UHGV virus genome: UHGV-1694526
Strand: one strand, 5' to 3'
Origin: a virus
DNA: 10,932 nt
Positions 1 through 10,932 of the stretch are shown in pieces. Position 1 is the first letter of the stretch. The number at the start of each line of letters is the position of its first letter. The position numbers were made by a program, and so were the translations under genes. The notes beneath the pieces are model-generated. The model saw only the letters and a program-made list of their open reading frames with translations, was not told the origin of the DNA and searched no databases.

Positions 1-1128
1 CTGTTAAGCGAGTCTATTTCAACCCTTCCGCTGAAAATATACGTTCGACAGCCTGACGGTTCGCGTAAAGCGGCAACCGACCACCCGGCTTATTCTGTAC
101 TGTGTCGCCGTCCCAATTCAGAAATGACTCCATCACGCTTTATGCTGATGGTGGTTGCCAGTATTTGCCTGCGCGGGAACGCCTTCATTGAGAAGAAATT
201 CATCGCAAATCGCCTGGTTTCGCTGGTGCCTTTGCTGCCGCAGAACATGGTGGTTAAACGTCTTACTACCGGGGCGCTGGAATACAAATACACTGAAAAC
301 AGTAACGAGCGCGTCATTCCCGTCAAAAACATCATGCACATTCGCGGGTTCGGCCTGGATGGCGTTTGCGGCATGATGCCGATGAAGACTGGCCGGGATG
401 TGATCGGTGCCGCGATGGCTGTTGAAGAATCTGCGGCAAAGATTTTTGAACAGGGGCTTCAGAGTTCAGGTTTTCTCTCCGCTGAAAATGCTCTCAGTGA
501 TGAACAACGTGAAAGGCTTCGCGGCTACATGGCTGCATTTACCGGCTCTAAAAATGCCGGAAAGATTATGGTACTTGAAGGCGGGTTAAAGTATCAGGGC
601 GTCACCATGAACCCTGAAGATGCCCAGATGCTGGAAAGCCGTTCTTTCAGTATTGAGGAAATTTGTCGCTGGTTTCGCGTGCCTCCTTTCATGGTCGGTC
701 ATACCACGAAACAAAGCAGCTGGGCATCCAGTCTTGAGGGGATGAACCTGCAGTTCCTGACGCATACCCTTCGACCGCTGCTGGTAAATATTGAGCAGGA
801 AATTGACCGGTGCTTACTCGACAGCGATGATGACGTGTTTGCAGAGTTCTCCGTTGAAGGTCTACTGCGAGCCGATAGTGCCGGTCGCGCGGCATACTAT
901 ACCAGCGCGCTTCAAAATGGCTGGATGTCCCGTAATGACGTTCGTCGTCTTGAGAACATGCCGCCAATTGAAGGGGGCGATATTTACACCGTTCAGCTCA
1001 ACCTGACGCAACTGAAAAATCTCGAAAGCAGCAATCCTGCTGTTCAGGCTCTGGCCCTGAGAGAACTGCATAACCACGTATTCCCCGATATTTCCTTTGA
1101 ACAATCTCCGCTGAAACAGGCCGCTTAG
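1..1128 (+). CDS. Phage portal protein (HK97-like family), 5'-partial; the frame is open from window position 1 and the ATG at 124 is internal
   Basis: Seen: frame-1 reading frame has no stop from nt 1 to TAA 1126-1128 (>375 codons). Synteny: directly upstream of a ClpP-like prohead protease and a capsid gene, the canonical portal-protease-capsid order. Family call is by recollection of portal C-terminal regions, not a search. Confidence 0.8.
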   Translation: MLSESISTLPLKIYVRQPDGSRKAATDHPAYSVLCRRPNSEMTPSRFMLMVVASICLRGNAFIEKKFIANRLVSLVPLLPQNMVVKRLTTGALEYKYTENSNERVIPVKNIMHIRGFGLDGVCGMMPMKTGRDVIGAAMAVEESAAKIFEQGLQSSGFLSAENALSDEQRERLRGYMAAFTGSKNAGKIMVLEGGLKYQGVTMNPEDAQMLESRSFSIEEICRWFRVPPFMVGHTTKQSSWASSLEGMNLQFLTHTLRPLLVNIEQEIDRCLLDSDDDVFAEFSVEGLLRADSAGRAAYYTSALQNGWMSRNDVRRLENMPPIEGGDIYTVQLNLTQLKNLESSNPAVQALALRELHNHVFPDISFEQSPLKQAA

Positions 1129-1141
1129 GAGCACTTTCCTG

Positions 1142-1996
1142 ATGAGCAAAAAAAAACTTCCGGTAGCACCGGCGGGTCGCCCATGCGCGCGCGTTACCTG
1201 TGAAACATTACCGTCCGCACTGGACCGCTGGGACGGCGGGATCAAAGCGGCGGCCACCGACGATAACAGTATTTCTGTTTTTGATGTTATCGGGCAGGAC
1301 TACTGGGGCGAAGGGGTAACAGCTAAACGTATTGCTGGTGCGCTTCGGGCTATGAACGGCGCCGACGTCACGGTGAATATCAACTCACCTGGCGGCGACA
1401 TGTTCGAAGGTCTGGCTATTTATAACCTGCTCCGCGAATACGAAGGCCGTGTCACGGTGAAGGTGCTGGGCATTGCCGCCAGCGCCGCCTCGATAATTGC
1501 GATGGCCGGGGATGATATTCAGATTGGCCGCGGTGCCTTCCTGATGATCCACAACTGCTGGGTATATGCGATGGGAAACCGCCATGATTTTGCAGAACTG
1601 GCACAGTCACTGGAACCCTTCGATACCGCTATGGCTGACATCTACGCGGCGCGCTCCGGCCTTGATATGGTAGCCGTTCAGAAACTGATGGACGCCGAGA
1701 GTTATATCGGTGGCAGTGACGCTGTGGCGAAGGGACTGGCAGACAGCCTGCTTTCTGCTGATGCAGTCAGTGATGGCGATGAATCACCTGCGGCCGCGAT
1801 TCGCAAACTTGATGCGCTGCTGGCTAAAACCAACACCCCGCGCTCTGAGCGCAGAAAACTCATTAAAGCCTTATCCGGGAGCAAGCCAGGCGCTGCTTCT
1901 GACCAAAAAGGCACGCCGAGCGCTGCCACCATCGAAAACGAAACCATTGACCGACTGGAAGCCGCACTCAGCGGCCTGAAAGCGGCTGCCCAGTAA
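1142..1996 (+). CDS. Prohead (head maturation) serine protease, ClpP/S14-like, with an Ala/Lys/Ser-rich C-terminal extension
   Basis: Seen: 284-aa ORF with ClpP-like motifs NSPGGD, GIAASAAS (Ser nucleophile context) and MIHN (His). Synteny: sits between portal and capsid genes. SD AGGAG lies upstream of ATG 1142. Confidence 0.8.
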   Translation: MSKKKLPVAPAGRPCARVTCETLPSALDRWDGGIKAAATDDNSISVFDVIGQDYWGEGVTAKRIAGALRAMNGADVTVNINSPGGDMFEGLAIYNLLREYEGRVTVKVLGIAASAASIIAMAGDDIQIGRGAFLMIHNCWVYAMGNRHDFAELAQSLEPFDTAMADIYAARSGLDMVAVQKLMDAESYIGGSDAVAKGLADSLLSADAVSDGDESPAAAIRKLDALLAKTNTPRSERRKLIKALSGSKPGAASDQKGTPSAATIENETIDRLEAALSGLKAAAQ

Positions 1997-2008
1997 AACG
2001 GAGATATT

Positions 2009-3229
2009 ATGTCTGATGTAAATGAGATCCTGAAAAAAGTCAGCGCCAGCATTGAAGAGGCGACCGGAAAATTCAACGCGAAAGCAGAAGACGCACTCAA
2101 AGAGGCGCAGAAGTCAGGCAGGCTGTCAGAAGAAACAAAAGCTGCCGTTGATAAAATGGCTTCTGAGTTCAATGCGCTGCGTGAAGCTGAAAAAACCCTG
2201 AAGGCCGCAATGGGCGAACTGGAGCAACATGTTGCCCAGATGCCGCTGGCCAACGCTGCAAAGGTGATCGAGACCGTTGGCCAGACCGTCATCAGCAGCG
2301 AAGCACTGAAAGCATTCGCGGCAAGCGTGGAAGGCGGTAAGCGCGTCAGCGTACCGGTGAACGCCGCGCTTATTTCCACGGATGTCGTCACCGGCGTGGT
2401 TGAACCGCAGCGTCTGCCGGGTATCGACACCGCACCGAAACAGCGCCTTTTCATCCGCGATCTGATCGCGCCTGGCCGCACCTCAGCACCGGCCATCTTC
2501 TGGGTGCAGCAAACCGGCTTCACCAATGCGGCGAAAGTTGTGCCGGAAGGCACCGCCAAGCCGTACAGCGATATCCAGTTCGCCACGCAGATCACGCCGG
2601 TCACCACCATCGCGCACATGTTCAAGGCGTCCAAACAGATTCTGGATGACTTCGCGCAGCTGCAGTCCACTATCGACGCCGAGATGCGTTACGGACTGAA
2701 GTATGTGGAAGAACAGGAAATTCTCTTTGGCGACGGTACCGGTGCGCACCTGAAAGGCATCGTTCCGCAGGCCTCGGCATACGATGCTGCGTTCGCCGTA
2801 GAACAACAGAACGGCATCGACGATCTGCGCCTCGCAATGCTGCAGGCTCAGCTGGCACGCTTCCCGGCTTCCGGCCACGTCCTGCACTTCATCGACTGGG
2901 CGAAGATTGAACTCACCAAAGACACGCTGGGCCGCTATATCCTGGCGAACCCAGCGACCCTGACTGGCCCTACCCTTTGGGGCCTGCCGGTGGTAGCAAC
3001 CGAAGCCGCAGCATTCCAGGGCAAGTTCCTGACCGGTGCATTCAACGCTGCGGCACAGCTGTTTGACCGTGAAGACGCCAACGTGGTGATCTCCACTGAG
3101 AACGCCGACGACTTTGAGAAAAACATGATCTCGATTCGCTGCGAAGAGCGTCTGGCCCTGGCGGTGAAACGCCCTGAAGCGTTCATCTACGGCTCCTTCA
3201 CTGCGCCTGCAGCAGGTGGCGGCGCGTAA
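2009..3229 (+). CDS. Major capsid protein, HK97 fold, with an N-terminal coiled-coil delta (scaffolding-like) domain
   Basis: Seen: 406-aa ORF with GGAG SD; the first ~100 aa are K/E/A-rich and helical. Position immediately after the prohead protease and size/composition are typical of HK97-family capsid proteins. No separate scaffold gene is present. Confidence 0.8.
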   Translation: MSDVNEILKKVSASIEEATGKFNAKAEDALKEAQKSGRLSEETKAAVDKMASEFNALREAEKTLKAAMGELEQHVAQMPLANAAKVIETVGQTVISSEALKAFAASVEGGKRVSVPVNAALISTDVVTGVVEPQRLPGIDTAPKQRLFIRDLIAPGRTSAPAIFWVQQTGFTNAAKVVPEGTAKPYSDIQFATQITPVTTIAHMFKASKQILDDFAQLQSTIDAEMRYGLKYVEEQEILFGDGTGAHLKGIVPQASAYDAAFAVEQQNGIDDLRLAMLQAQLARFPASGHVLHFIDWAKIELTKDTLGRYILANPATLTGPTLWGLPVVATEAAAFQGKFLTGAFNAAAQLFDREDANVVISTENADDFEKNMISIRCEERLALAVKRPEAFIYGSFTAPAAGGGA

Positions 3230-3238
3230 TCCTTAACG

Positions 3239-3254
3239 GCGGCCTGCGGGCCGC
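3239..3254 (+). promoter_or_regulatory. GC stem-loop (GCGGCC-TGCG-GGCCGC) followed by TTT, 10 nt downstream of the capsid stop
   Basis: Seen: perfect 6-bp inverted repeat with a 4-nt loop and a short T run. Could be an attenuator or mRNA-stabilising hairpin after the highly expressed capsid gene. Confidence 0.3.
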
Positions 3255-3270
3255 TTTCACAGGTGGGAAA

Positions 3271-3483
3271 ATGAAACTGATCGCACTCAAACCGATTTAT
3301 TTCGGCGGTACCGTCGTTACTGAAGGGCTTCCGCTGGAAACTCTGGAACAGCACGGGCGCGAGCTCATCAAGAAAGGTTATGCGAAGCTCGAAGAATCAG
3401 AAAATCCTGCAAAGCAGGAACAGCAGCAGGAACAGCAGCAGGAACAGCCGGAATTAAAAGCGGAAAAGAAGGCGAAAAAATAA
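3271..3483 (+). CDS. Hypothetical small protein (70 aa) with a QEQQ repeat and Lys-rich C-terminus
   Basis: Seen: ORF with a GGTGGG SD-like sequence upstream; its stop overlaps the next start (TAATG at 3481-3485), consistent with translational coupling into the connector gene. Function unknown. Confidence 0.45.
   Translation: MKLIALKPIYFGGTVVTEGLPLETLEQHGRELIKKGYAKLEESENPAKQEQQQEQQQEQPELKAEKKAKK
3415..3447 (+). repeat. In-frame 12-nt tandem repeat (CAGCAGCAGGAA x2 perfect, with partial flanking copies) encoding QEQQQEQQQEQ
   Basis: Seen directly in the sequence at 3415-3450. Confidence 0.7.
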
Positions 3484-3809
3484 TGGTCGATCTTGATGTG
3501 GTGAAACAGCACTGCCGCATTGATACCGATTTTTCCGGAGACGATGCCCTGCTGACTTTATACACCGGTGCGGCGGAGCGTTACGTCCAGACATGGACAA
3601 GGCGAACGCTCTATGAAAACCAAAGCTCCCCTGGCTACGCAGACGACCAGGACCCGATTCTACTGAATGATGATGTTAAAGCGGCCATGTTATTGCTGAT
3701 AGGTCACTGGTATGCCAACAGAGAATCAGTTGCCGTCGGTCAGACCGTTGCAGAGGTCCCGTTTGCAGTTGAAGCGTTGCTGCAGCCGTATCGAATTTAC
3801 GGGGTGTAA
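3483..3809 (+). CDS. Head-tail connector (gp6-like) protein
   Basis: Seen: 108-aa ORF. N-terminal pattern (VKQHCRIDTDFSGDDALLTLYTGAAERYV) matches the gp6-like head-tail connector family as I recall it; position after the capsid gene fits. Confidence 0.7.
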   Translation: MVDLDVVKQHCRIDTDFSGDDALLTLYTGAAERYVQTWTRRTLYENQSSPGYADDQDPILLNDDVKAAMLLLIGHWYANRESVAVGQTVAEVPFAVEALLQPYRIYGV

Positions 3810-3872
3810 TTATGTCTTGTTCTGGATGCGCGCAACGGCGCGAGTGGATAAAAAAGTGGGCAAAAATAGCTT

Positions 3873-4070
3873 ATGAACGAGCAACTGGTAAACGAACTGA
3901 TAGCAGTGATACGGGAACAAATCACAGCGCAGAGGGAGCAGACGGAAGCGATAAGCCGTCTGGCTGAATCAAATATGGCGCTTTGCGATATCATTATCCA
4001 GTCGCTGGCTGGTGAACTAGATGAAACTGCAGAGCAACAAACCTATCTGAGCGGTAAACCCAGGGGGTAA
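3873..4070 (+). CDS. Hypothetical small helical protein (65 aa)
   Basis: Seen: ORF whose stop is 1 nt before the next ATG (4072), with AGGGGG as SD for the downstream gene. Its own SD is weak or distant. It overlaps a 51-codon ORF (3812-3967) in another frame that has the better SD. Confidence 0.4.
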   Translation: MNEQLVNELIAVIREQITAQREQTEAISRLAESNMALCDIIIQSLAGELDETAEQQTYLSGKPRG

Positions 4071-4071
4071 C

Positions 4072-4404
4072 ATGCAGGCCGGGAAATTGTGCCACAGGAT
4101 TACTCTGCAGGAGCCAGTAAAAGTGCAGAACCCGACAACGGGAGCCGTAATTAATGCCTGGCGAGATGTTGCGACTGTCTGGGCCGAAGTTTCACCATTG
4201 TCAGCACGTGAATTTATTGCTGCGCAGGCTTCTCAGGGTGAAATAACCACCCGTATTGTTATTCGCTACCGTGCCGGAGTTACCAGAAAACATCGCATCT
4301 TGTTTCGTGGTGCTGTGTATAACATCCATGGTGTTCTGCCCGATCCAAAAAGCGGACGTGAATACCTGACGCTTCCCTGTTCTGAGGGTGTTAATGATGG
4401 CTGA
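4072..4404 (+). CDS. Head closure / head-tail joining protein
   Basis: Seen: 110-aa ORF. Motif layout (HRITLQ...W..V..VWAEV.PLS.RE...AQ......ITTRIVIRYR) matches phage head-tail joining proteins as I recall them; synteny supports it. Confidence 0.7.
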   Translation: MQAGKLCHRITLQEPVKVQNPTTGAVINAWRDVATVWAEVSPLSAREFIAAQASQGEITTRIVIRYRAGVTRKHRILFRGAVYNIHGVLPDPKSGREYLTLPCSEGVNDG

Positions 4405-4931
4405 TAGTGTTGAGGTAAGTCTTACCGGGCTTGAATCACTTCTTGGGAAAATGGAGGCCGTATCAGAAGTCACCCGTAATAAAGCCGGTCGGTTTGCATT
4501 GCGTAAGGCGGCAAACATTAGAAGGGATCGGGCCAGACGCGTCACGCGTTGATGATCCTCTGACTAAAGAAGCAATCCACAAAAATATCGTCGCCAGCTT
4601 CAGCAGCAAGCAATTCCGCAGGACAGGTGATCTGGCATTCCGTGTCGGGGTAATGGGCGGTGCCAGGCAGTATGCAAATACAAAGGCAAACGTCAGAAAA
4701 GGCAGAGCGGGTAAAACATACAAAACCTCAGGAGATAAAGGCAATCCAGGAGGAGATACCTGGTACTGGCGTTTTCTTGAGTTTGGTACTGAGCACACAT
4801 CAGCGCGGCCTATCCTCCGACCTGCAATGAACGGCGTAGATAATGACGTGATTAATGTTTTTTCTACGGAAATGGGAAAGGCTATTGATCGCGCTATCAG
4901 GCTGGCCACGAAGAAAGGAACCACTGCATGA
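4394..4931 (+). pseudogene. HK97 gp10-like tail component gene, apparently split by a frameshift (N-terminus in one frame to TGA 4550-4552, C-terminus in another to TGA 4929-4931)
   Basis: Seen: ATG 4394/4397 with a GAGG SD opens a frame reading MADSVEVSLTGLESLLGKMEAVSEVTRNKAGRFALRKAANIRRDRARRVTR*. A second frame, open from 4398, becomes protein-like only from about 4540 (ASRVDDPLTKEAIHK...YWRFLEFGTEHTSARPILRPA...) and has no credible start of its own. The ORF-track start at 4431 is a TTG with a nonsense-looking N-terminus. Confidence 0.5.
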
Positions 4932-5293
4932 TTGCCCCTATTTTTTCTGTTTGCGCGTCGAGTCATGAAGTCACTGACTTACTCGGAAGCAATCCGGTAA
5001 GAATTTATCCTTTCGGAATTCAGGACGACAACGTGGTCTATCCCTATGTGGTCTGGCAGAACATCACCGGTTCTCCAGAGAACTACATTGCCCAGCGCCC
5101 TGACGCAGACTTTTTCACGCTGCAGGTGGATGCATATGCCGACACCGTGGATGAAGTGATTGCCGTGGCTACTGCGCTGCGGGATGCCATTGAGCCGCAC
5201 GCGCATATCACGCGCTGGGGCGGACAGGAAAGAGACCCCGAAACAAAGCGCTATCGCTACTCATTCGATGTTGACTGGATAGTCACTCGATAA
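4928..5293 (+). CDS. Putative tail completion / tail terminator-like protein (DUF3168-like)
   Basis: Seen: 121-aa ORF starting in an ATGA overlap with the upstream stop. The RIYP...VYPYVVW pattern and position just upstream of the major tail gene support the call. Family assignment is from memory. Confidence 0.55.
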   Translation: MIAPIFSVCASSHEVTDLLGSNPVRIYPFGIQDDNVVYPYVVWQNITGSPENYIAQRPDADFFTLQVDAYADTVDEVIAVATALRDAIEPHAHITRWGGQERDPETKRYRYSFDVDWIVTR

Positions 5294-5308
5294 ACGTATT
5301 ATTCAACC

Positions 5309-5331
5309 ACCGGCCTTGAGCCGGTTTTTTT
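5309..5331 (+). terminator. Intrinsic-terminator-like hairpin (ACCGGC-CTTGA-GCCGGT) followed by T7
   Basis: Seen: GC stem 5310-5314 / 5320-5324 with a 5-nt loop, then seven T (5325-5331), in the 54-nt gap between the tail-completion and major-tail genes. Confidence 0.5.
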
Positions 5332-5347
5332 ATGACCGGAGATAACA

Positions 5348-5848
5348 ATGTCTGTATTGACGCAAGGTACGCAGCTCTTTGTGCTCGTAAAAGGCGAGGT
5401 GAGCGAAGTTGAATGTATCACTGCATTTTCACCCGGCAGCAATCCGGCTGACCAGATTGAAGACACCTGTCTTTCTGAACGCTTTGATCGCAGCTATAAG
5501 CGTGGTCTTCGAACGCCTGGCACAGCATCACTGACGCTTAACGCTGATCCTAAAAATACCAGCCACATCATGCTCTACAACCTGTCCATTTCGGACGACG
5601 AAGAGGATCAGGACCTGACCTTCGCGATTGGATGGTCAGACGGAACCGCATCGCCAACTGCGGCTGAAAATGGTGCATCCGGTGCAGTCGATGGCCTGGT
5701 GCTACCTGATAGCCGCACATGGTTCGTATTCAAAGGCTATGTGTCCGACTTCCCGTTTGATTTTGCAGCAAACACGGTTGTTTCTACTTCTGCATCTATC
5801 CAGCGCTCCGGCTCTGCTGTATGGGTGCCAAAAGTCGTGACCCCATAA
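5348..5848 (+). CDS. Major tail (tube) protein
   Basis: Seen: 166-aa ORF with GGAG SD 6 nt upstream. Called mainly by synteny (immediately upstream of the G/GT chaperone pair and tape measure) and by a size typical of siphovirus tube proteins. Confidence 0.6.
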
Positions 5849-5852
5849 AATC

Positions 5853-5868
5853 AGGGCGGCAACGCCCT
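5853..5868 (+). promoter_or_regulatory. Stem-loop AGGGCG-GCAA-CGCCCT just after the major tail gene stop
   Basis: Seen: perfect 6-bp inverted repeat with a GNRA-type loop, followed by an AT-rich stretch and the SD of the next gene. Confidence 0.3.
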
Positions 5869-5886
5869 TATTAATCAGGATTAATA

Positions 5887-6372
5887 ATGAAATTAACACT
5901 TGATGCACTCAAGGAGTCCGGCGCGTTTACCGGTCGCCCGGTTGAGAAAGAAATCACCTGGACGCAAGGCGATAAAAAAATCACCGCGACCGTGTATGTT
6001 CGCCCGATGGGTTATCACACAGCAACGTCCGATGTGCTGGCTTTTGGTGGTAAGGTCGATGGTGTGGCAGGGCGTATCGCCGCATCCATCTGCGATGAAC
6101 ATGGTAAACCCATCTTCACCCCGGCTGACATTACTGGTGAGGCAGATCCTGAACGTGGTGCACTGGATGGCGGCCTGACGGTAGCACTGCTTCTGGCCAT
6201 TCAGGAAGTTAACGATCTGGGAAAGACTTCGAGCTCAGCGCCGAAGACGAATTCTGGTGCGAGCTCGTCCTCAACGGAATCGGAGGCAGAACAATCGCCG
6301 AAGCGCGGGAAGTCCTCTCATTCAAAGAGTCCCAACTCTGGGCAAAGTACCGGGAACGATACGGGAGTCTGA
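5887..6372 (+). CDS. G: Tail assembly chaperone, gpG-like (zero-frame product)
   Basis: Seen: 161-aa ORF directly upstream of the tape measure, containing the heptamer GGGAAAG (6219-6225) with zero-frame codons GGA AAG. The C-terminal zero-frame tail is Ser-rich and low complexity. Confidence 0.8.
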   Translation: MKLTLDALKESGAFTGRPVEKEITWTQGDKKITATVYVRPMGYHTATSDVLAFGGKVDGVAGRIAASICDEHGKPIFTPADITGEADPERGALDGGLTVALLLAIQEVNDLGKTSSSAPKTNSGASSSSTESEAEQSPKRGKSSHSKSPNSGQSTGNDTGV

Positions 6373-6548
6373 ACCCTATGTTGCGGGTTGAGTGGGGTGC
6401 CGGGCTGGTGAGCAGCATGATAGCCAACGTTAACAGAGACCCCAAGCGCCCACCATTCAACCCGACCGATTTCACACTTCACTTTACCAAAGTCAAAGCT
6501 GCTGATGGACCAATCTCATTAGAGGAAGCCAGAGCCAGCTGGACATAA
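5887..6548 (+). CDS. Tail assembly chaperone frameshift fusion, gpGT-like (-1 ribosomal frameshift at 6219-6225; about 220 aa)
   Basis: Seen: the -1 frame is open from the slippery site to TAA 6546-6548 and encodes a protein-like domain (DFELSAEDEFWCELVLNGIGGRTIAEAREV...) with no start codon of its own, ending 20 nt before the tape measure ATG. Established: this G/GT arrangement is conserved in long-tailed phages. Confidence 0.7.
6219..6225 (+). promoter_or_regulatory. -1 programmed ribosomal frameshift slippery heptamer G GGA AAG
   Basis: Seen: exact X XXY YYZ heptamer in the correct phase within the gpG-like ORF; identical to the heptamer known from lambda G/GT. Confidence 0.75.
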
Positions 6549-6567
6549 TGCCGCCAACGGAGAGTTT

Positions 6568-8988
6568 ATGGCTTCCAAATCACTGGGCACGCTGACGATC
6601 GACCTGATTGCCAAAGTGGGCGGTTTTGTCTCAGGCCTCTCGCAGGCTGAGCGAGCTTCACAAAAATGGCGTAAGCAGGTAAAGGAGGATGCCGCTGCCG
6701 CTGCAGCTGCCATGACCGGATTCGCAACAGCAGTCGGGGCTGCAGCCATCGGAGCCGGAGTGGCGGGGTATAACCTGCTCAAAACCACTTCACGTCAGAT
6801 TACCGAATCAGACCGCTGGGCAAAGTCACTTAACATGTCCACGCAGTCCCTGTTAGCCTGGCAATATGCTGCAGAAAAAGCAGGTGTTTCCGGCGATCAG
6901 ATGGCCGATATCTTTAAAGATGTCGGAGACAAAATCGGTGATGCCGTTCTTAATAAATCTGGTGAGGCGGTCGGTGCGCTGGACGCTCTGGGTTTGTCGG
7001 CTAAGAAACTGGCCGGAGAATCTCCCGACAAGCAACTCCTGGCTATCAGCGACGCACTGGAGAAAGTTAAGTCCAACGCCGAGAAGACTACCATCCTGGA
7101 GAGTCTGGGTAATGACCTGTCAAAGATGCTGCCGCTCCTGGACAATGGCAGTGAAAAGCTGCGTCAGTATATGGATGCCGCGAAGAAGTTTGGTGTGGCG
7201 CCCGATGACGCAGATATTGAAAAGCTGGTCAGAGTCAACGCCCTGTTTGAGGATATGGAGACGCAGGTCAACGGCGTCAAAATTGAACTTGCTGCAGGGC
7301 TCGCCAGCGTAGATTTGAGTGGGCTCCAGAAGTCTATTGGAGATATGGGGGATGTATTTAAAGACCCGGCTGTTATTCAGGGTCTGACTGATCTGGTTGG
7401 TGGGGTAGTGGACCTTGCCACCTGGCTGGTAAGGGTAGGAGCCGAGGCCGGAAAGCTGATAGACCAGTACAAAGGTGGGAGTTCGGTCGGCCTGAATGCC
7501 TCCATTCCAGAAATTGAACGGCGCATCAAGAACCTGAATGCAGATCTCGATGATAAAGGCATACTGGCGAGTTTCAACAGAATAGGTATGGACGTATCCG
7601 GTAAGGAGGCCGAAAGGGCTGAGCTCCAGAGGCGACTGGCCTTTTTGAGAAACTCCCAATCTACTCTACCGGAAATAAAACTGCCCGAGCCAGTCAAAAC
7701 AAACTATACCCTTGGCGCCGGGGAAACAAACGGTAAGCCGCAAAAAAATACCTCTGGTCAGAAACTGGATTCAGCGTTTAAAAGCGCTGAGCGCAGTTAC
7801 ATGCGTCAGATTGAGCTGATCGATACCACCGGCAAAAAAACTGCTGTGGTGACCGAGCAGCAAAAACTGCAGTTCGATATAGCTGACGGCAAGTTGCAGG
7901 GGCTTAACGAAACCCAGAAGAAACGACTTGCGTCTCTGGCTCAGGAAGTTGATCGCCTTAATGCCGTCAAAAAAGCTAATGAAGAAAACGCGAAGGTAGC
8001 GGCGTTCGTGGCAAATCTGCAGGAGCAGAACGAGAATGCACGTGCAGATTTGGGCGTGGATATTCAGGGGGCCGGACTCGGTGACAAGCAGCGTGAAAGG
8101 CTGAGGGAAAGGCTGAGTATAGAGCGCAGTTATCTCGATCAGCAGCGCGATCTGCAAAAGCAGTATCAGTCAGGAGATATCAGCCAGACAGTTTATGACC
8201 GCGAAACCCAGGCATTAAAGGATGCGCAAGCTGAGAGGCTGGGCATCCAGGAGGATTATTACAGTCAAATTGATGCGCTGCAGTCTGACTGGGTGACTGG
8301 CGCCAGAGACGGTCTCGCTGACTGGGTAGATGATTCAACTAACTATGCGACGCTGGCGGCGGACGCTATGAAAAGCGCGCTTTCCGGTATCAGCAGCAAT
8401 ATCGTCGACATGCTCAACGGCAATAAAGCGAGCTGGAAAGACTGGGGTGTCAGTGTTCTGAAAATCATCGAACAGGTGATGGTTAACATGATGATCGCCA
8501 ATGCAGCCAGCTCGATAGGCTCATTGTTCGGTGGTGCCGCATCGTCTTCCGCCAGCAGCGGTACTGCGATTCAGTCCTACGGGGCGAGCCTGCAATTCAA
8601 CGCCAAAGGCGGCGTTTACTCTTCTGCCGATCTCAGTCAGTACAGTAACTCTGTCGTCAGCTCTCCAACACTGTTTGCCTTTGCCAAAGGGGCCGGATTG
8701 ATGGGGGAGGCTGGGCCGGAGGCTATTATGCCACTGACCCGCGCCGCTGACGGATCGCTGGGCGTGCGTGCTATGGGAATCTCAGGCTTAACACCGGGTG
8801 GTAGTAGTGCTCCTCAGGTCAGTATTCAGATTGATGGCAATGGGAATACCCAGACTCAGGCTAGCGGTGGATATGAGCAATTCGGGCGGGAGGTAGGTAG
8901 TTTTGTTGATCGGCGATACCGCGAGTTGATAGGCCGTGACCTTTCACCCGGTGGCGCGGTCTGGAATCTGGCAAAAGGAGGGCGGTGA
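6568..8988 (+). CDS. H: Tail tape measure protein (806 aa)
   Basis: Seen: very long ORF with GGAG SD, directly after the G/GT pair, with a helical K/E/Q-rich middle and a hydrophobic Gly/Ala/Ser-rich C-terminal region (LFAFAKGAGLMGEAGPEAIMPL...) resembling the lambda gpH C-terminus as I recall it. Confidence 0.9.
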   Translation: MASKSLGTLTIDLIAKVGGFVSGLSQAERASQKWRKQVKEDAAAAAAAMTGFATAVGAAAIGAGVAGYNLLKTTSRQITESDRWAKSLNMSTQSLLAWQYAAEKAGVSGDQMADIFKDVGDKIGDAVLNKSGEAVGALDALGLSAKKLAGESPDKQLLAISDALEKVKSNAEKTTILESLGNDLSKMLPLLDNGSEKLRQYMDAAKKFGVAPDDADIEKLVRVNALFEDMETQVNGVKIELAAGLASVDLSGLQKSIGDMGDVFKDPAVIQGLTDLVGGVVDLATWLVRVGAEAGKLIDQYKGGSSVGLNASIPEIERRIKNLNADLDDKGILASFNRIGMDVSGKEAERAELQRRLAFLRNSQSTLPEIKLPEPVKTNYTLGAGETNGKPQKNTSGQKLDSAFKSAERSYMRQIELIDTTGKKTAVVTEQQKLQFDIADGKLQGLNETQKKRLASLAQEVDRLNAVKKANEENAKVAAFVANLQEQNENARADLGVDIQGAGLGDKQRERLRERLSIERSYLDQQRDLQKQYQSGDISQTVYDRETQALKDAQAERLGIQEDYYSQIDALQSDWVTGARDGLADWVDDSTNYATLAADAMKSALSGISSNIVDMLNGNKASWKDWGVSVLKIIEQVMVNMMIANAASSIGSLFGGAASSSASSGTAIQSYGASLQFNAKGGVYSSADLSQYSNSVVSSPTLFAFAKGAGLMGEAGPEAIMPLTRAADGSLGVRAMGISGLTPGGSSAPQVSIQIDGNGNTQTQASGGYEQFGREVGSFVDRRYRELIGRDLSPGGAVWNLAKGGR

Positions 8989-9326
8989 TGGCTATAGAAA
9001 CATTCAGCTGGTGTCCGCGCCCGAACGCGGAGCAGGAAGTGACATTCCGACGGCGCACCGCGCAGTTCGGTGACGGATATCAGCAGGTTTCCGGCGACGG
9101 GATTAATCCCCGCTCGCAGAAATGGACTCTCCAGTTTACCGGTACCGAAACGTATATCGGGGCGATTAAAGACTTTCTCGATCGCCATGCGGGCGTGACG
9201 GCGTTTCAGTGGCGCCCGCCGCTTGAGCCTCTCGGGCTTTACCGCTGCGACACCTACACACCAACGCCACTTGGTGCCGGGTTATTTAATCTTTCTGCAA
9301 CTTTTGAACAGGCCTACAAACCATGA
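8988..9326 (+). CDS. M: Minor tail protein M (lambda gpM-like)
   Basis: Seen: 112-aa ORF from ATG 8988 with AAAGGAGGG SD, overlapping the tape measure stop (TGATG). Contains the FGDGYQQ and FQWRPP motifs and a FEQ C-terminus, matching lambda gpM as recalled. The ORF track begins at GTG 8985; ATG 8988 is preferred. Confidence 0.85.
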   Translation: MAIETFSWCPRPNAEQEVTFRRRTAQFGDGYQQVSGDGINPRSQKWTLQFTGTETYIGAIKDFLDRHAGVTAFQWRPPLEPLGLYRCDTYTPTPLGAGLFNLSATFEQAYKP

Positions 9327-10078
9327 GTCTTAACGCAGATTTTCAGAAGCTCGAACCTGGCGATGTGGTCAGGCTTTTCGAAGTGGATGGCACGGCATTT
9401 GGTACAGGTGATGTGCTGCGATTTCACAGCTACAGTCTTGCGCACTCTGAAGCCGAAATTATCGCTGCTGGCGGTGATGAAAATAAACTGCCAGCAAAAT
9501 CTATCTGGTGGCAGGGTGAGGAGTATAAAGCGTGGCCATGCCAGATTGAGGGGATCGAAGCTTCAACCTCGGGAAGTAGTGCCCAGCCAAAACTTTCGGT
9601 TGCTAACCTCGACAGTTCGATCACCGCGCTTTGCCTGGCTTACGACGATATGCTGCAGGCGAAGGTGACGATACATGACACCCTTGGTAAGTATCTCGAT
9701 GCGAGAAACTTCACCGGAGGCAATCCGACAGCCGATCCGACCCAGGAGAAGCTGAAGGTTTTCTACATCGATGCAAAGAGCAGTGAAACCAATGAAGTTG
9801 TTGAGTTCACACTATCCAGCCCTATGGATCTGCAGGGGCTGATGATACCTACCCGCCAGCTTCATTCCCTGTGTACCTGGTGCATCCGGAATAAATATCG
9901 TACCGGCGACGGATGCGACTATGCCGGCACCCGCTATTTCGATAAAAACAACAACCCGGTAAGCGATCCGTCGCTGGATGAATGCAATGGCACGCTGACG
10001 GCCTGCAAACTCCGATTCGGCGAAAATAACGAACTCTCGTTTGGTGGCTTCCCGGGCACGTCTTTGATCAGGAGTTGA
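9323..10078 (+). CDS. L: Minor tail protein L (lambda gpL-like) with a C-terminal cysteine cluster
   Basis: Seen: 251-aa ORF starting in an ATGA overlap with the M stop. C-terminal Cys pattern CTWC...GCDY...DECNG...TACK. Synteny M-L-K. Confidence 0.85.
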   Translation: MSLNADFQKLEPGDVVRLFEVDGTAFGTGDVLRFHSYSLAHSEAEIIAAGGDENKLPAKSIWWQGEEYKAWPCQIEGIEASTSGSSAQPKLSVANLDSSITALCLAYDDMLQAKVTIHDTLGKYLDARNFTGGNPTADPTQEKLKVFYIDAKSSETNEVVEFTLSSPMDLQGLMIPTRQLHSLCTWCIRNKYRTGDGCDYAGTRYFDKNNNPVSDPSLDECNGTLTACKLRFGENNELSFGGFPGTSLIRS

Positions 10079-10079
10079 T

Positions 10080-10790
10080 ATGCGTCAGAAAACCATCGAT
10101 GCGATTATGGCGCATGCTGCAGCTGAATATCCTCGTGAGTGTTGCGGCGTGGTGGCGCAAAAGAGCCGGGTAGAGAAATATTTTCCATGTAGTAACCTCG
10201 CTACCGAGCCGACAGAACATTTTCACCTGTCGCCAGAAGACTATGCAGCTGCTGAGGACTGGGGTACGGTGATCGCCATCGTTCACAGTCACCCTGACGC
10301 CACTACGCAGCCGAGCGAACTGGATAAAGCGCAATGCGACGCAACGCTTTTACCCTGGCATATTGTGAGCTGGCCGGAGGGGGATTTACGCACCATCCAG
10401 CCGCGCGGAGAACTGCCGCTGCTGGAGCGTCCGTTTGTGCTTGGACACTTCGACTGCTGGGGGCTGGTAATGAGCTATTTCCGGCAAACGCATGGTATCG
10501 AGCTCCACGATTACCGGGTGGATTATCCCTGGTGGGAAAACGACTATCCGGACAACTTCTATCAGGATTGCTGGTATGAGTGCGGATTCCGTGAATTCGA
10601 CGGGCCACCGAAACCCGGCGATATGGTGATCATGCAGGTCCAGGCTGATAAGTGGAATCACGCGGGAATCCTGCTGGAGGGCAATATGCTGCTGCACCAC
10701 CTGTATGGACATCTGAGCCAGCGTGTGCCGTATGGTGGCTACTGGCAGGAAAGGACGATGAAGGTTCTACGTTACAAATCTCTGTGCTAA
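10080..10790 (+). CDS. K: Tail assembly protein K (lambda gpK-like): N-terminal MPN/JAMM domain plus C-terminal NlpC/P60 domain
   Basis: Seen: 236-aa ORF with GGAG SD. JAMM motif H-S-H-x7-S-x2-D (HSHPDATTQPSELD) with upstream Glu (EYPRECCGVV); NlpC/P60-type Cys (HFDCWGLV) and His (WNHAGILL). Confidence 0.85.
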   Translation: MRQKTIDAIMAHAAAEYPRECCGVVAQKSRVEKYFPCSNLATEPTEHFHLSPEDYAAAEDWGTVIAIVHSHPDATTQPSELDKAQCDATLLPWHIVSWPEGDLRTIQPRGELPLLERPFVLGHFDCWGLVMSYFRQTHGIELHDYRVDYPWWENDYPDNFYQDCWYECGFREFDGPPKPGDMVIMQVQADKWNHAGILLEGNMLLHHLYGHLSQRVPYGGYWQERTMKVLRYKSLC

Positions 10791-10819
10791 CCTTTTGTAA
10801 AACCAAAGGGGATAGGGAT

Positions 10820-10932
10820 ATGAAAAGAATTTTAGTTTTTACCTCCATCTTAATGGTTGCCGGTTGTGCAACTAAGCCGGTGACAAATGAACAAGCACAG
10901 GATGTTCCTGCAAAACAGGTTATCAGCAATAC
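10820..10932 (+). CDS. Putative lipoprotein, 3'-partial (runs off the window end); likely accessory cargo gene (moron)
   Basis: Seen: ATG 10820 preceded by AAGGGG; N-terminus MKRILVFTSILMVAGCATKP has a basic n-region, hydrophobic h-region and lipobox V-A-G-C with Ala at +2. By hand count about 40% GC over 113 nt, visibly lower than the flanking structural genes. Confidence 0.5.
   Translation, partial: MKRILVFTSILMVAGCATKPVTNEQAQDVPAKQVISN

Follow-up and report, generated by a model that had tools for sequence, protein, structure and literature searches.

Organization of the chaperone locus

The DNA analysed here is a stretch of 10,932 nucleotides from the virus genome UHGV-1694526, referred to below as the window, and the locus under study occupies positions 5887-6548 on its plus strand. 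A G-like tail assembly chaperone ORF of 161 amino acids, the equivalent of gp13 of phage HK022 (AF069308.1), extends in the zero frame from the ATG at 5887-5889 to the stop codon at 6370-6372 (5887..6372), as given by the list of open reading frames and its translation. Inside this ORF lies the slippery heptamer GGGAAAG (6219..6225). Codon 111 ends at base 6219 and the zero frame reads CTG GGA AAG, so that the heptamer is phased as G_GGA_AAG, with Gly as codon 112 and Lys as codon 113. The −1 frame is closed by a TAA at 6210-6212 and is open from 6213 up to the TAA at 6546-6548. Counted from GGG it comprises 109 codons (6219..6548, stop included), that is, Gly-Lys followed by a T-like part of 107 residues beginning DFELSAEDEF. 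The fusion predicted from a −1 shift at this site, join(5887..6225, 6225..6548), has 220 amino acids and the junction ...NDLGK/DFELSAEDEF; the predicted peptide spanning the G-like/T junction is NDLGKDFELSAEDEF, and the tryptic junction peptide, after ...NDLGK, is DFELSAEDEFWCELVLNGIGGR. Beyond the heptamer the zero frame continues for 48 codons, 16 of them Ser, and a stop (6226..6372), overlapping the T frame. The −1 stop is separated by a gap of 19 nt from the ATG at 6568 that starts the tape-measure gene.

An initial annotation of this DNA, made from the letters alone, had placed a slip in the correct phase at about codon 112 of 161, followed by 107 open codons of −1 frame ending just before the tape-measure gene and leaving a long Ser-rich tail on the G-like product, and each of these points was borne out. 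It had also described the −1 frame as lacking any start codon. This is accurate for the first 51 codons after Gly-Lys and not for the remainder, in which ATG 6378, TTG 6381, GTG 6408 and ATG 6417 are found. Because of ATG 6378, a 56 amino acid ORF (6378..6548) is listed in the six-frame set, and the earlier remark that no T-like ORF appeared there was mistaken.

The order of genes around the locus is tail completion (PF11367), tail tube, G/T, tape measure, and gpM-, gpL- and gpK-like genes. The upstream neighbour (5348..5848, +) encodes the major tail tube protein, matched by PF16460 (Phage_TTP_11) at 220.9 bits and corresponding to the HK022 gp12 major tail subunit. The downstream neighbour (6568..8988, +) encodes the tail length tape-measure protein, matched by TIGR01541 at 446.8 bits and by PF09718, and corresponds to HK022 gp16. 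Between the tail completion and tail tube genes, a terminator-like hairpin followed by a T run is present at 5309-5325 (+), and is annotated as a rho-independent terminator in phage mEp235. A terminator within the late operon, just before the gene for the most abundant tail protein, is odd.

Residues 6-109 of the G-like part match the whole of the Pfam model PF16459 (Phage_TAC_13, positions 1-98 of 98) with 117.9 bits against a threshold of 28.8, and this part also matches PHROG 1749. A search of the −1 product against the tail assembly protein T family, proposed in the initial annotation as a check, came out positive: the −1 part matches PF06223 (Phage_tail_T) with 30.7 bits against a gathering threshold of 25.9, and with 35.2 bits within the fusion. 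The match covers residues 32-102 of the T part, approximately positions 6318-6530. The −1 part also matches PHROGs 337 and 5297. In the comparative set described below, 67 of 69 homologous −1 products match PF06223 (best E = 1.2e-13), and the T protein of lambda scores 54.1 bits. The G-like part gave no match at E <= 1 to PF06894 (Phage_TAC_2), the family of lambda gpG, for which lambda G itself scores 206.9 bits, and BLASTP of the G-like part against lambda G revealed no pairwise similarity (E = 49). No NCBIfam model was matched by the G-like or the fusion product, and no relatives in the PDB were found by sequence for the fusion or for a profile of 69 T sequences.

Relation to HK022 and treatment of the locus in existing records

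The region 5348-6800 is 99.8% identical to phage HK022, and also to HK140, mEpX2 and mEp235. Within 5887-6548 a single difference from HK022 was found, a synonymous one at position 6518, and the 220-residue fusion is 100% identical to those encoded by HK022, HK140, mEpX2 and mEp235. The HK022 genome record (AF069308.1) annotates the gp13 tail assembly chaperone as a CDS at 7797..8282 and gp14 as a two-piece join at 7797..8458, the latter described as 'tail assembly chaperone ... presumed to be expressed as the downstream part of a translational frameshift product'. Since this GenBank entry joins gp13 and gp14 at the same nucleotide as the site considered here, the frameshift site was already known and is on record, and with respect to the frameshift feature itself HK022 and the window do not differ at all.

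Other records of the same DNA treat the long form differently. In the RefSeq version of HK022 (NC_002166.1), gp14 is a 5′-partial CDS at 8129..8458, in which 8129 corresponds to window position 6219, the first base of the heptamer. In mEp235 (JQ182731.1, 8769..8939) a 'gpT analog' of 56 amino acids is annotated from an ATG and equals window positions 6378-6548. In E. coli prophages annotated by PGAP (H92-H98) only the short chaperone is given, in some cases together with a 'hypothetical protein'.

The rest of the window does differ from HK022. The window is a mosaic: the head genes at 1-3820 resemble those of mEp235, and HK022, HK140 and mEpX2 match only from position 3821 (3821-10826, 98.5-98.8%). 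The best full-length match is mEp235, with 96.6% identity over 98% of the window. The chaperone module is rare in E. coli, being present in 7 of 5426 complete genomes, six times at an identity of at least 99.7% and once at 86.9%. A gene of the HK97-gp10 family at 4394-4931 carries a 5-nt deletion (AAGCA) after about position 4536, together with two nearby substitutions, relative to mEp235 and HK022. As a result of the deletion this homologue falls into two pieces, 4394..4552 and another frame that ends at 4931. All six complete E. coli genomes that carry the gene are free of the deletion; the copy in the window may be defective, or the change may stem from sequencing error or from engineering.

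Conservation of the shift site in homologous loci

The comparative set consisted of eight diverged phage loci and 61 prophage loci taken from contigs with one genome per species, making 70 loci with the window, and the T parts of these relatives are 30-94% identical to that of the window. The loci belong to phages and prophages of enterobacteria, Pseudomonas, Halomonas, Vibrio, Synechococcus and others. An in-phase, shift-prone heptamer was present in 69 of the 70, located 9-13 codons (20 in one case) before the invariant Trp of the T part. GGGAAAG was the most frequent form (n = 54), followed by AAAAAAC (n = 4), GGGAAAA, AAAAAAA and CCCAAAG (n = 3 each), and AAAAAAG and CCCAAAA (n = 1 each); in loci L023 and L044 the heptamers, GGGAAAA and GGGAAAG respectively, were assigned by inspection. 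G_GGA_AAG, C_CCA_AAG and A_AAA_AAG are reported to be highly shift-prone in E. coli (PMC5009743).

The only locus without a canonical heptamer is L021 (1833-1839), a prophage of Candidatus Pantoea communis, which has GGGGAAG. This form results from one A to G change that is silent in the zero frame, and the two-frame layout is otherwise intact. Slippage of a single tRNA on GGGG may operate in this locus, or the prophage may be decaying.

The slip site is conserved in its nucleotides. Its Gly codon is GGA, which the G-like ORFs use less often than any other codon for Gly (45 of 685). The codon preceding the heptamer varies in its amino acid (Leu, Met, Ala, Ser, Pro, Val or Gln), and the base that the heptamer requires is kept.

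In the T part, the conserved motif EFWCELVLNGIGGRT lies upstream of every start codon in the −1 frame. The invariant residues (W, E-L-V, G, G-G and T, in the arrangement W-ELV-GIGG-T) all precede the first of these start codons, ATG 6378, and independent initiation therefore cannot make that region.

The Ser-rich zero-frame tail

Relatives have zero-frame tails of 0 to 48 codons (median 13). The 48-codon tail stays open, with the same stop, in the six closest of them, while its sequence drifts. Most substitutions that separate these six from the window in the overlap hit third positions of −1-frame codons (with counts over the three codon positions of, for instance, 2/2/11, 6/5/19 and 3/3/16), and it follows that the −1 frame is the frame under selection. 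The overlap is 84-96% identical in the T frame and 52-73% identical in the tail. The composition of the tail is that of an off-frame reading of the acidic and Leu-rich T sequence; the T-frame codons GAA GAC GAA TTC TGG TGC GAG CTC, for instance, are read in the tail as K T N S G A S S. Because of this composition and the substitution pattern, the Ser-rich tail is most likely a by-product, an unselected shadow of the −1 frame. A slip 48 codons ahead of the stop is atypical in comparison with lambda, but it is common to the closest relatives.

Candidate stimulatory elements

A hairpin predicted by folding at 6230..6267 (+), starting 4 nt after the heptamer, is a candidate frameshift stimulator. 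The pairs are formed by 6230-6236 with 6261-6267, 6238-6242 with 6256-6260, and 6243-6245 with 6252-6254, and the lower stem (CGAGCUC/GAGCUCG) derives from two Glu-Leu dipeptides. The minimum free energy of the 60 nt after the heptamer (6226-6285) is −24.1 kcal/mol and is dominated by this hairpin; the stability corresponds to z = −2.28 against dinucleotide shuffles and z = −2.83 against recodings synonymous in the T frame. At the same position in 68 distinct relatives, which are not independent samples, the mean z was −1.44 and 29% were below −2, compared with a mean z of −0.03 to −0.46 and 3-9% below −2 in seven control windows from the same genes. In an ungapped alignment of 43 sequences, pairing at S1 (6230-6267) and S2 (6246-6269) was 61.1% and 81.1%, equal to that of column-shuffled controls, and no excess of compensatory changes over these controls was found at either. 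With pairing at the level of the shuffled controls, no one structure can be put forward as conserved; what this position shows is an overall surplus of stability, and the hairpin of the window is weakened in relatives at about 80% identity. A stimulatory effect of the hairpin on the slip rate is plausible.

A subgroup of the relatives with A_AAA_AAC (L010 1145-1210, Pseudomonas phage PAJU2, and L064, L070 and L071) has the zero-frame stop directly after the heptamer. Downstream by 5-6 nt is a predicted hairpin of 13-15 bp with z of −2.9 to −4.8 against synonymous recodings, which we consider the clearest candidate for a stimulatory structure in the family.

A weak Shine-Dalgarno-like sequence, AGGAAG (6203..6208, +), is located 10 nt upstream of the heptamer. 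Its predicted interaction with the anti-Shine-Dalgarno sequence (−4.9 kcal/mol) is equalled by 25% of control positions. GAGGT or AGGAGGT is found 8-10 nt ahead of the heptamer in many relatives, with a mean of −7.7 kcal/mol against −2.8 at control sites. As a stimulator this upstream element was rejected: the excess in the family vanishes after synonymous recoding (mean z = −0.45) and is due to conserved Glu-Val codons. AGGAAG is thus probably not a functional element in the window.

The −1 frameshift site of E. coli dnaX, A_AAA_AAG, is preceded by a Shine-Dalgarno-like element and followed by a hairpin. The locus studied here resembles it in a tandem slip site ending on the Lys codon AAG and in a predicted hairpin shortly downstream, and in several relatives the heptamer is preceded, at a distance of 10 nt, by a perfect AGGAGGT. 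In the window, however, this motif has the degraded form AGGAAG, which is no better than chance, and the hairpin is without covariation. Furthermore, the dnaX shift meets a stop almost at once, whereas here a domain of 107 codons is opened.

The tail and the hairpin may also be read together, the early slip being a true branch point and not a read-through. The 48-residue Ser/Thr/Lys-rich disordered tail would then have a role of its own, for example in tuning the binding of the chaperone to the tape measure or in the stability of the short form, and a stimulator peculiar to this lineage, in the form of the 6230-6267 hairpin, would give a rate unlike that of lambda. Retention of the tail in the six closest relatives and a hairpin stabler than 97-99% of recodings stand behind this proposal, which we nevertheless regard as unlikely; the tail as an unselected shadow remains the preferred reading.

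Comparison with lambda

In lambda, G and GT are produced by a −1 frameshift (Levin, Hendrix and Casjens 1993; Xu, Hendrix and Duda 2004, 2013, 2014, as cited in PMC5009743). At the lambda GGGAAAG about 96% of ribosomes stay in frame (PMC3296357), the slip rate being about 4% (PMC3296357; PMC5009743), and G and GT are both required for tail assembly and are absent from virions (PMC5009743).

The heptamer of the window is the same as in lambda, as the initial annotation had claimed, and so is its phase; in lambda GGGAAAG is found at 10109-10115 of J02459, at codon 134 of 140 of gene G. The order of tube, G/T and tape-measure genes is also shared, and the T part belongs to PF06223 in both phages. 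The differences concern the G-like domain (PF16459 here, PF06894 in lambda), the length of the T part (107 residues against 144), the distance from the slip to the zero-frame stop (48 codons against 5) and the T sequences themselves, which are only about 22% identical in pairwise comparison.

Proposed expression of the locus and alternative explanations

We consider it very probable that the locus is the lambda-type G/GT module of an HK022-like lambdoid phage, in which a fixed minority of ribosomes slips by −1 on G_GGA_AAG and makes a G-like/T fusion. Most ribosomes starting at ATG 5887 would read to the stop at 6372 and release the 161-residue G-like chaperone. The minority would slip back one base on 6219-6225, with tRNA-Gly exchanging its GGA for GGG and tRNA-Lys its AAG for AAA, and would continue in the −1 frame to 6548, yielding the 220-residue product in which the G-like domain is joined to a T domain of the lambda gpT family. 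The hairpin at 6230-6267, 4 nt downstream, may increase the slip rate. On the model of lambda, the short and the long product would both coat the tape-measure protein, the product of the next gene, through their G-like domain, and the tail tube protein, the product of the preceding gene, would be recruited by the rare T domain. The slip rate would set the ratio of short and long products. The claim that this is the conserved programmed frameshift of a G/GT-type chaperone pair is in good agreement with the Pfam domains, the gene order, the 69 of 70 loci and the annotation of HK022.

The T-like region might instead be made on its own from ATG 6378, by initiation or by reinitiation after the stop at 6372, giving a free protein of 56 residues. 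This ATG is in the −1 frame, 6 nt past the zero-frame stop and 10 nt downstream of a Shine-Dalgarno-like GGGAG (6363-6367); exactly this ORF (6378-6548) is annotated as the gpT analogue in mEp235, and PHROG 5297 covers only the C-terminal part of the −1 product. The most conserved region of T, with the invariant W, E, L, V, G, G and T, is however upstream of 6378 and without a start codon, and the PF06223 match begins 20 residues before the Met in question. In relatives this Met is replaced by I, G, L, S or Q, and the position of the zero-frame stop varies widely, so that the juxtaposition of stop and ATG is not conserved. A free T fragment would also be without the G-like domain, which in the lambda model tethers T to the tape measure. 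Separate expression from ATG 6378 is for these reasons very unlikely.

Still less probable is a change of frame at the RNA level, in which RNA polymerase would slip on a short run of A and introduce an extra base into some of the mRNAs. Some relatives do have runs of six or seven A at the site (AAAAAAA, AAAAAAC), in principle enough for transcriptional slippage. The window has three A only (GGGAAAG), and the runs known to provoke slippage of the polymerase are far longer (reviewed in PMC5009743). The phase-specific X_XXY_YYZ pattern, with a conserved base before the run, is the signature of tandem slippage on the ribosome.

The heptamer carries little weight when taken alone. The window contains three copies of GGGAAAG where 1.7 would be expected, and three or more copies turned up in 40 of 200 shuffled sequences. 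Long open −1 frames are likewise not rare: 2.7% of in-phase positions in the window have one, in most cases as a result of overlap between adjacent phage genes. The genes of the window contain 8-9 in-phase XXXYYYZ heptamers, and of these only the one at 6219-6225 opens a −1 frame of more than 40 codons. A second in-phase GGGAAAG at 4874-4880, inside the gp10 homologue, is followed by a −1 frame that shuts after 4 codons, and serves as an internal control showing that a heptamer by itself means little. The weight of evidence for recoding lies in context and comparison and not in the heptamer alone. The least probable explanation, that no recoding takes place and that a single gene has decayed or been mis-sequenced or the −1 frame is open by chance, could draw on the frequency of such frames and on the one apparent frame-disrupting 5-nt deletion elsewhere in the window, but it is effectively refuted by a two-frame layout and heptamer that recur in 69 of the 70 loci, even where identity is only about 30%, and by a −1 frame that has a coding-type substitution pattern and matches a curated protein family.

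Significance

The locus adds no new biology beyond the G/GT paradigm. To what the HK022 record already contained, the present analysis adds the matches to PF16459 and PF06223, the conservation in 69 of 70 loci and the presence of the rare GGA codon at the site. The value is mainly one of annotation: several records of this DNA omit or shorten the long form of the chaperone, which in lambda is required to build the tail. The nucleotide signature obtained from the 70 loci, a heptamer maintained against codon preference together with a variable zero-frame tail, could serve for automatic annotation of the family.
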